Below are positions 33,801 to 34,646 of a stretch of 64,000 nucleotides of DNA, one piece after another. Position 1 is the stretch's first letter. The number at the start of each line of letters is the position of its first letter. Origin of the DNA: Paracoccaceae bacterium (GTDB taxonomy: Bacteria; Pseudomonadota; Alphaproteobacteria; Rhodobacterales; Rhodobacteraceae); NCBI GenBank assembly GCA_050256375.1, contig JBBWVU010000020.1, forward strand, positions 38,485 through 102,484, read 5' to 3'. The position numbers and the translations under genes were made by a program. The notes under the pieces were generated by a model. It saw only the letters and a program-made list of their open reading frames with translations, was not told the DNA's origin and made no database searches.

Positions 33801-33922
33801 TGGAACGCTCGTTGGTTAAAGGTGTTTTCGGGAGTTATGCAATAAACTTGGCGCGGGATAAAGGGCGTAGTGCGTTCGGGCCTGAGGTGGGCATGTGGAC
33901 CATTTCCTGAATTTTACGCACG

Positions 33923-33953
33923 AAAAAAGAGGCGTTCGGTTTTCACCGCGCCT
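33923..33953 (-). terminator. Intrinsic terminator on the minus strand, upstream of serS
   Basis: Minus strand AGGCG-CGGT-GAAA-ACCG-AA-CGCCT-C-TTTTTT (GAAA tetraloop, U tract). Confidence 0.75.
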
Positions 33954-34221
33954 TTACATCAAATATGACTGTGATTGGCCATTTGGGCCGTGGTTTCGGG
34001 TTATCCGGTTTAAAAATCGCCCTGTGCCGACCGAGGTCAGGTCTACCGCGCTAGATTATTTTGTGCCATTCCCAAGCCACGTTTCTGCCAAATGCTGCTT
34101 GTCCGGCAGCGCAACGAATGGGTCTGTTGTTTAGGATTTTGCTGCTTGAAATATGCAGCGGTAAATTCAAATGCTCTAGCGCGATAAACCAGTGGACTTC
34201 TTAACCCCGCTTCGCTCAGTA
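33923..34221 (-). ncRNA. Candidate ~300-nt small RNA
   Basis: No convincing ORF in the minus-strand frames; bounded by a CtrA box and -10 element upstream and a terminator downstream; 9-bp long-range helix and a repeated 9-mer inside. Confidence 0.4.
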
Positions 34222-34259
34222 CGAATCGTTATACGGGAAATTGGTTAAGGAAGGGTTAA
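34222..34259 (-). promoter_or_regulatory. CtrA-type box TTAA-N7-TTAAC with downstream TATAAC and a CGATTCG (GANTC) site
   Basis: Minus strand TTAACCCTTCCTTAACC-aatttcccg-TATAAC-GATTCG; box at 34244-34259, -10-like element at 34228-34233. Confidence 0.65.
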
Positions 34260-34645
34260 GTCGGGTTGAATTCCGGACATTTTTTGCACCAACGTCGATC
34301 GCAGATCATGCATGGCCATCAGGATCGTTTGAGCATTGTCGGTGACTTGGGTGTCAGTCGCACCCGACTGCAGCCATTGCGCTGCGGCGTTCATTTTGGT
34401 GACCAAATTGTCGATGCGAGCGGTATCGCGCGCCGATTGGATAGCGGTTTGATCCGTGTGCTATGCAGCGATTTCAGTCAATTCCGCCTCGTTCGGGGTT
34501 TGCTTGCCAAAAGGTTTCACATCGCCATTGGGCTTCAACACAGCGATTTGTTGCATGTCCAGTCGCGCGTGATCACCTTGGGCGGTTCGGAAAACGGCGG
34601 CTCCGTTACCCTTGCGGCGGAAATATAGGTTAGGGCGGTTTAACA

Positions 34646-34646
<1 letters not shown>
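34245..34646 (-). pseudogene. Conserved Rhodobacterales hypothetical protein with an in-frame TAG at 34461-34463
   Basis: MLNRPNLYFRRKGNGAAVFR...EIAA*HTDQ...AAQWLQSGATD...ILMAMHDLRSTLV; the frame stays open for about 70 codons past the TAG. The ATG is coupled to the aminotransferase stop (TGATG). Confidence 0.65.

Follow-up and report, generated by a model that had tools for sequence, protein, structure and literature searches.

What does the spacer between aspC and serS encode on the minus strand of the stretch of DNA analysed here (64,000 nucleotides, hereafter the window)? An earlier note, made from the letters alone, had claimed that it hides a CtrA-driven small RNA of about 300 nt upstream of serS. 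All the motifs on which this claim was built (the CtrA box, TATAAC, CGATTCG, the hairpin with its U-run, the 9-bp helix and the pair of CAAGCAGCA copies) were found where the note had placed them. The RNA unit occupies 33923-34220 on the minus strand, is preceded by a promoter of about 40 nt, and is one of seven paralogous units in the source genome. Its features are listed below; promoter positions are counted from the A of ACUGAGCGA, the start being placed where conservation begins.

33923-34220, minus strand: predicted non-coding RNA of 298 nt, beginning with the A of ACUGAGCGA and ending with the U-run
34244-34259, minus strand: CtrA-type box TTAA-N7-TTAAC (TTAA-CCCTTCC-TTAAC), at about -39 to -24 from the predicted start
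34228-34234, minus strand: -10 element GTATAAC (TATAAC at 34233-34228, the G at 34234)
34223-34227, minus strand: GANTC (GATTC) site of the CcrM type within CGATTCG (34228-34222), between the -10 element and the start
34211-34220, minus strand: near-invariant 5' end ACUGAGCGAA, candidate seed or strand of a closing helix
34192-34210, minus strand: hairpin P1, 85% of cells paired, 3 of 5 pairs changed on both sides
34175-34191, minus strand: 5' strand of the long-range helix P2, including the TCTAGCGCG marked in the earlier note
34039-34055, minus strand: 3' strand of the long-range helix P2
34141-34159, minus strand: hairpin P3, GCUGC / GCAGC in the window and GUUGC / GCAAC in most copies
34081-34115, minus strand: helix P4 around hairpin P5, with 99% (P4) and 87% (P5) of cells paired
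33998-34022, minus strand: hairpin P7 with the conserved loop UUAAACC, 8 of 8 pairs with double-sided changes
33977-33989, minus strand: hairpin P8, 4 of 4 pairs covarying, e.g. CG/UA/GC 22:13:11
33953-33976, minus strand: single-stranded spacer, CCUC(C/U)CCGAG in most copies and AAUCACAG in the window copy
33923-33952, minus strand: intrinsic terminator, a bulged GC-rich hairpin followed by a U-run, -12.4 kcal/mol

The 309-nt interval is predicted to fold better than 100 out of 100 shuffled sequences (z = -3.0). The 9-bp helix formed by 34175-34183 and 34047-34055 belongs to a 17-bp helix of the minimum-free-energy fold and makes up its core. The two CAAGCAGCA copies, which in the RNA sense lie at 34148-34140 and 34101-34093, are the 3' strands of the similar hairpins P3 and P5. 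The terminator hairpin reads GGCGCGGU-GAAA-ACCGAACGCC (33952-33931 on the minus strand) and is followed by UCUUUUUU, which ends at 33923. The earlier note had seen neither a convincing open reading frame nor a known RNA family in this interval, and it was right on both points: no sense-strand open reading frame is longer than 39 amino acids, and a scan of the window against Rfam 15 gave no relevant match at E-values up to 10.

A BLASTN search of relatives with the aspC-serS spacer as the query showed that the RNA is not the single hidden small RNA that had been envisaged, it is a member of a gene family. The window segment at about 33904-34264 is a dispersed repeat, the extent of which is exactly that of the interval singled out in the earlier note, and the flanking DNA is not repeated. 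With nhmmer and a covariance model, seven copies were located in the 2.93-Mb source genome: two on contig C73 and one each on C20 (the window copy), C39, C7, C15 and C62. The flanks of all seven are unrelated to one another. In boundary alignments of 20 and later 47 copies, taken from 17 genomes, conservation starts about 40 nt upstream of the invariant ACUGAGCGA and stops a few bases past the U-run of the terminator, as expected for a gene that is copied together with its promoter and terminator.

The covariance model of the family, R1, comprises 284 positions and 57 pairs; the window RNA matches it over the full length with 219.8 bits. After re-alignment of 55 copies to R1, 91.2% of the pair cells in the eight helices were canonical, compared with 36-42% when the 3' partners were slid by 1-3 columns, and double-sided changes were seen in 36 of the 57 pairs (slid controls: 11-16). 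Column shuffling, repeated 500 times, never reached any of the observed measures, and in a second set of 55 distinct metagenome sequences 91.1% of cells were paired, with 31 of 57 pairs changed on both sides. Helix P2 (17 pairs, 93% of cells paired) has nine pairs with double-sided changes, e.g. UA/CG 29:21 and AU/GC 36:11; P3 is paired in 99% of cells, with UA to CG swaps in 7 and 3 sequences, and GC/AU and CG/UA swaps are present in P4/P5. Some subfamilies carry GNRA loops on P1, the loop of P7 reads UUAAACC or CUAACCC with a nearly invariant A and C, and the terminator, paired in 94% of cells and with double-sided changes in 5 of its 8 pairs, has a conserved U-run. Frequent G·U pairs fix the transcribed strand. 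Within the stems the sequence itself is conserved as well, namely GGUUUAUCGCGC and, each occurring twice, CGUUGC and GCAACA. The 5' end, of which positions 1-9 are at least 90% conserved among 47 copies, has two possible internal partners: a CUCAG-like segment inside the P2 domain (34072-34076, pairing in 94% of cells) and, directly after P2, a segment similar to CUCGGUCAG (34027-34035, 83% of cells), the latter with some GAGG/CCUC versus GAGA/UCUC covariation.

No open reading frame is conserved in the family: the longest per copy varies from 0 to 77 amino acids, no frame is common to the copies, and six copies have no open reading frame of at least 20 amino acids. When seven divergent copies were compared with Rfam, the only match was MmgR/suhB in one copy (20 bits against a gathering threshold of 41), which was dismissed because it aligns with the terminator alone. 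Judged from these sequence comparisons, we are dealing with a family of structured non-coding RNA genes with an intrinsic terminator. The strong compensatory changes across the alignment, together with the conserved promoter block described below, thus support what the earlier note had proposed, namely a separate gene of about 300 nt for a structured RNA, equipped with a CtrA-type promoter and a terminator of its own.

The distribution of the family is narrow. R1 finds 1-12 copies per genome in 18 of the 19 genomes (species) of the genus, about 135 in total. The sole genome of the genus without a copy, even in a laxer search, is G010 (2 contigs, 99% complete), which offers a natural comparison for what the RNA family is needed for. 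No match was obtained with R1 in 150 other genera of the bacterial family under stricter filters, nor in the four nearest genera under laxer ones. A pattern scan of 185,579 species genomes gave true matches only in Rhodobacteraceae, Paracoccaceae or Rhodobacterales assemblies, nearly all of them metagenome-assembled genomes (MAGs), and the genus itself is known almost only from MAGs. The metagenome matches include contigs labelled as marine-sediment or sediment metagenomes, most of the matches carrying accession-style names, and a search of the metagenomes for transcript-like contigs returned only DNA contigs longer than 1 kb. As far as these searches reach, the RNA family is restricted to one apparently uncultured marine Rhodobacteraceae genus. 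In MAGs, the copies are often found at contig ends or no more than a few hundred bases away from them (L029, L035, L036, L044, L048, L052, L054, L056, L058), which fits assembly breaks at a multicopy repeat, so that copy numbers from draft genomes are lower bounds. A shorter subfamily of about 245 nt is represented in the source genome by G000:C73:255346-255592 (plus strand) and G000:C62:24933-25173 (minus strand). It is more divergent, starts with GCUGG(G/A)CAGGAC and is without hairpin P3; the box, the -10 element, P2, the C/U-rich motif and the terminator are kept. One genome of the genus, G012, seems to hold this subfamily only.

Chance does not explain a unit that is found at seven unrelated loci, numbers about 135 in the genus, keeps its boundaries and shows compensatory changes; the question becomes whether it is an autonomous gene. 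In the window the RNA shares its strand with aspC, which lies upstream, and with serS, which lies downstream, and no terminator is found between the upstream open reading frame and the RNA, so that read-through is possible; the interval could then be merely the 3' untranslated region of the aspC-orf operon, or a cis-acting leader or attenuator of serS. We find this explanation hardly credible. The unit and its promoter recur at six other unrelated loci, five of which face a convergent gene (the downstream gene is convergent at 5 and co-oriented at 2 of the 7 copies), an aminoacyl-tRNA synthetase gene follows at the window copy only, neither a T-box nor any other leader model gives a match, and a strong terminator separates the RNA from serS. 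The neighbours of the copies are likewise unrelated, ordinary housekeeping genes (APH kinase, GNAT acetyltransferase, UvrD, DUF1127 protein, U32 peptidase, EamA transporter, serine dehydratase, thiamin pyrophosphokinase, ABC ATPase and M3 peptidase), and no linkage to a tRNA was found. A cis leader or T-box of serS was rejected on account of these contexts, i.e. the five convergent genes and the unrelated neighbours, and of the Rfam result; the adjacency to serS, mentioned in the earlier note, is incidental.

The same dispersal is what a non-autonomous, MITE-like mobile repeat with incidental promoter- and terminator-like ends would produce: the sequence is multicopy, varies from 0 to 12 copies per genome, often sits at MAG contig ends and occupies variable intergenic islets. 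Several observations nevertheless make such an origin very improbable. The copy alignments show neither terminal inverted repeats nor target duplications, the paralogs are 66-86% identical and not near-identical, the compensatory changes keep RNA helices on one strand, and plasmid and phage collections gave no match to the family. Moreover, five copies of the closest species correspond best to particular copies of the source genome, the flanks having been compared for two of them, which makes recent movement unlikely. A clean empty site was not found in the relatives; the orthologous loci hold other genes, with the RNA in variable islets. On this comparison the RNA genes look stably inherited and not actively mobile.

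The window copy itself departs from the family in two respects. The C/U-rich CCUC(C/U)CCGAG, which is kept in the C39 paralog and in the ortholog of the closest species, is absent from it, and its helix P4 has one G·A mismatch, a C-to-A change at 34081-34085 (GAAAC; GCAAC in the family) that breaks one pair. Because of the lost motif and the mismatch, the window copy may be drifting, either diverging in function or decaying. Two neighbouring genes also deserve mention. Between aspC and the RNA, at 34245-34646 on the minus strand, open reading frames of 61 and 53 amino acids constitute one conserved hypothetical gene of about 133 amino acids, split by an in-frame TAG at 34463-34461, where relatives have Trp and an intact open reading frame of 132-140 amino acids. 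The last five codons and the stop of this gene fall inside the CtrA box, and in the closest species, too, the ortholog seems to be broken. Elsewhere in the source genome, a 70-amino-acid DUF1127 gene (G000:C7:8155-8367; L083:1928-2140, minus strand) lies 142 nt upstream of the C7 RNA copy in the same orientation; this adjacency occurs at one of the seven copies only and recalls the Rhodobacter DUF1127-CcsR arrangement.

What would drive the transcription of this RNA? TTAAC occupies -28 to -24 in 43 of 47 family copies and in 43 of 50 metagenome copies, and the right half-site takes the form of the 8-mer TTAACCAT/A in 33 of 47 (TTAACCAT in 23 copies, TTAACCAA in 10). The left half-site, 11 nt upstream, is degenerate, mostly T-N-(A/C)-A, with an exact TTAA in 7 of 47. 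The CtrA box described in the earlier note is indeed perfect in the window, but a full perfect box is found in only 5 of 47 copies, three copies of the source genome (G000) and the counterparts of the closest species among them; the signal of the family is the right half-site. The -10 element is TATAA(C/G) in 37 of 47 family copies and in 36 of the 50 from metagenomes, with a G at -14 in 45 of 47. The box ends 23 nt (TTAAC) or 24 nt (TTAA) before the A of ACUGAGCGA, a purine. In the CtrA-activated fla2 promoters of R. sphaeroides, which were mapped by 5'-RACE and mutagenesis, the end of the box is 23-24 nt from the start, the right element is at -27/-28 and there is an invariant A at -11 (PMC6180460). 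From this architecture, the RNA promoter is likely to be activated by CtrA.

The regulators invoked for such a promoter are encoded in the source genome. The ctrA gene (G000:C22:84810-85553) matches NF045991 with 399 bits against a cut-off of 350, and its own promoter (C22:85578) contains the box followed 11 nt later by TATAGT, one nucleotide more than in the RNA copies. A GcrA domain was found with 157.5 bits, as was a single CcrM-like methylase, aligned over its full length with 632 bits, short of the cut-off of 830 that was tuned on Caulobacter. The earlier note had also read the CGATTCG of the window as a CcrM site in a context used by GcrA. The site is there, but GANTC occurs in only 18 of 47 copies (16 of 50 metagenome copies) and in two registers, so that the link to GcrA is weak: control by GcrA and CcrM is possible without being a feature of the family. 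Throughout the genome TTAA-N7-TTAAC occurs at 189 sites, compared with 11-19 in shuffled sequences (about 12-fold over-representation); 106 of the sites are in coding sequence and 83 in the non-coding 12% of the genome. The CtrA box alone is therefore not rare, and what goes beyond chance is the combination of promoter, RNA and terminator into one unit. An 8-fold excess of the box was noted inside genes, many of the boxes are palindromic GTTAAC-N6-GTTAAC, and boxes precede ctrA, MopJ-like, FliG-like, radC, DalA-like lipoprotein, ptsN and tolC genes (e.g. C44:28207, C39:208816). This occurrence of the box suggests a large CtrA regulon in the source genome.

Two further explanations accept the RNA family as such and concern either its promoter or its mode of action. 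The promoter may be real and yet under the control of another factor, or a plain sigma-70 promoter with an unusual upstream element, in which case something other than CtrA reads the TTTGTTAACCATT block. As only the right half-site is well conserved and the left half is degenerate, another factor that recognises TTAACCAT is conceivable; besides, TTAA-rich motifs are abundant even in coding sequence, and a genome-wide positional link between the box and -10-like hexamers could not be demonstrated, strong -10 elements being too few. We regard this explanation as distinctly unlikely, given that TTAACCAT is, as cited in PMC6180460, the ungapped CtrA motif reported for Caulobacter, and that the distance from box to start equals that of measured CtrA promoters. 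In addition, the left half retains its T..A and is perfect in copies with a weak right half (those from metagenomes with TTTACC on the right have a perfect TTAAC on the left), and the ctrA promoter shows a similar layout apart from the extra nucleotide before its -10 element. The other explanation retains the family and its CtrA-type promoter and takes the RNA for a structured RNA that binds or sequesters a protein, similar to 6S, Y-RNA or CsrB or forming part of a ribonucleoprotein. At 250-300 nt the RNA is big for a small RNA that works by pairing, it has eight helices with a multi-branch core, and many stem positions in P2, P3 and P4 are conserved in sequence as well as in pairing; this size and conservation fit a protein-bound RNA at least as well. 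The invariant 5' end with its two alternative internal partners points the same way, as does the lack of a coherent set of mRNA targets in duplex scans. We still consider a protein-binding role rather unlikely: no protein-binding motif is repeated, no protein gene is consistently linked, and there is no similarity to 6S or any other Rfam model. A CsrA sponge in particular was rejected, the GGA motifs being few and not conserved.

Having weighed these alternatives, we consider it probable that the window unit is a 298-nt structured RNA gene, driven by CtrA and acting in trans as a riboregulator, which is one of seven paralogs and confined to its genus. The CckA-ChpT-CtrA relay in Rhodobacterales drives motility, gene-transfer-agent production and late-growth programmes. 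In the proposed mechanism, each copy forms a complete transcription unit of its own: a CtrA-type site with a strong right half (TTAACCAT/A) at -28 and a GTATAA -10 element precede the start at ACUGAGCGA, which is followed by eight helices and the terminator. Phosphorylated CtrA would bind the box over the -35 region and recruit RNA polymerase, the RNA would be made while the relay is on, and the transcript would end at its own intrinsic terminator. It would then act in trans as a riboregulator, probably by pairing with mRNAs through conserved segments that lie exposed, namely its 5' end, the loop of P7 and the C/U-rich stretch ahead of the terminator, and Hfq would probably assist this pairing. 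Transcription, CtrA dependence and action in trans are what we infer from the conserved sequence and its arrangement. As each copy has a CtrA-type promoter and a terminator of its own, the family probably links CtrA to control at the RNA level.

Among modes of action, a riboregulator that pairs with the assistance of Hfq is favoured; an hfq gene is encoded in the source genome, and a U-tailed terminator and conserved unpaired segments are present. Target prediction by duplex energies, in which five conserved segments were compared with 2779 translation-initiation regions, revealed no functional theme, the best matches being DUF2064, a peroxiredoxin, YbjN, a phosphatase, glycosyltransferases, an ABC ATPase and an Mrp/Nuo subunit. 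A bolder reading, which we think unlikely, is that these RNAs are not ordinary pairing small RNAs at all. Large structured RNAs would here have expanded into a class specific to this lineage, with up to 12 RNA genes in a genome of 2-3 Mb, whose members form a ribonucleoprotein or act as a two-conformation switch, the invariant 5' end being able to pair either within the P2 domain or outside it; the class would be an output arm dedicated to the CtrA phosphorelay.

In Alphaproteobacteria, the cell cycle, motility and gene-transfer agents are all under the master regulator CtrA. To the best of our knowledge, hardly anything has been reported on its outputs at the post-transcriptional level, and this holds above all for marine Rhodobacteraceae. 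A covariation-supported RNA family with a well-defined CtrA-type promoter is suited to submission to Rfam, could be used as a marker of CtrA activity in metatranscriptomes of Rhodobacteraceae from marine sediment and the subsurface, and provides a test case for how a regulatory RNA gene can multiply in small genomes, reaching a dozen copies. The finding is of limited value, since the genus seems to be uncultured and the function is deduced.

Families of sibling small RNAs are known in Alphaproteobacteria, e.g. CcsR1-4 and the 'cuckoo' RNAs. The CcsR RNAs are short, arranged in tandem, cut from the DUF1127 mRNA and RpoH-dependent, and they carry CCUCCUCCC in their loops. The family described here resembles CcsR1-4 and the 'cuckoo' RNAs in having several paralogs per genome, a C/U-rich stretch like an anti-Shine-Dalgarno sequence and one copy downstream of a DUF1127 gene. 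Unlike the CcsR RNAs, its members are dispersed, have their own CtrA-type promoters, are about 3-4 times longer and contain at most one C/U-rich stretch, and no Rfam match of the family copies to the CcsR or 'cuckoo' families was found.

With regard to the promoter, the closest parallel drawn here is that of the R. (Cereibacter) sphaeroides fla2 promoters, in which the box covers the -35 region and stops 23-24 nt short of the start, with the right element at about -27/-28, the -10 element has an A near -11/-12 and the start is a purine (PMC6180460). Those promoters, however, drive operons of flagellar proteins, whereas the promoters of the family would drive a non-coding RNA and in most copies keep well only the right half-site and its CCAT extension. 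Small RNAs have also been tied to the circuit of CtrA, DnaA and GcrA in Sinorhizobium meliloti: EcpR1 and GspR act in trans, are induced by stress and work upstream, on cell-cycle mRNAs (PMC4414408, PMC5928217). No sequence or structure similarity to them was found via Rfam and, in contrast to both, the RNA of the family appears to be an output of CtrA. In R. capsulatus, small RNAs with CtrA-dependent abundance were found by RNA-seq; as described in the available text of that report, they are lineage-specific, single-copy and about 60-90 nt long, and no CtrA box is given for them there (PMC5546546). The family shares with them that it consists of lineage-specific Rhodobacterales small RNAs, and is set apart, going by that description, by its length of 250-300 nt, multiple copies, high degree of structure and defined box. 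Thus, as CtrA-dependent small RNAs of R. capsulatus and sibling small RNA families of Alphaproteobacteria have been reported, the RNA genes found here constitute a new small RNA family of a general kind that is already known, unusual in its length, structural complexity, copy number in small genomes and very clear promoter.
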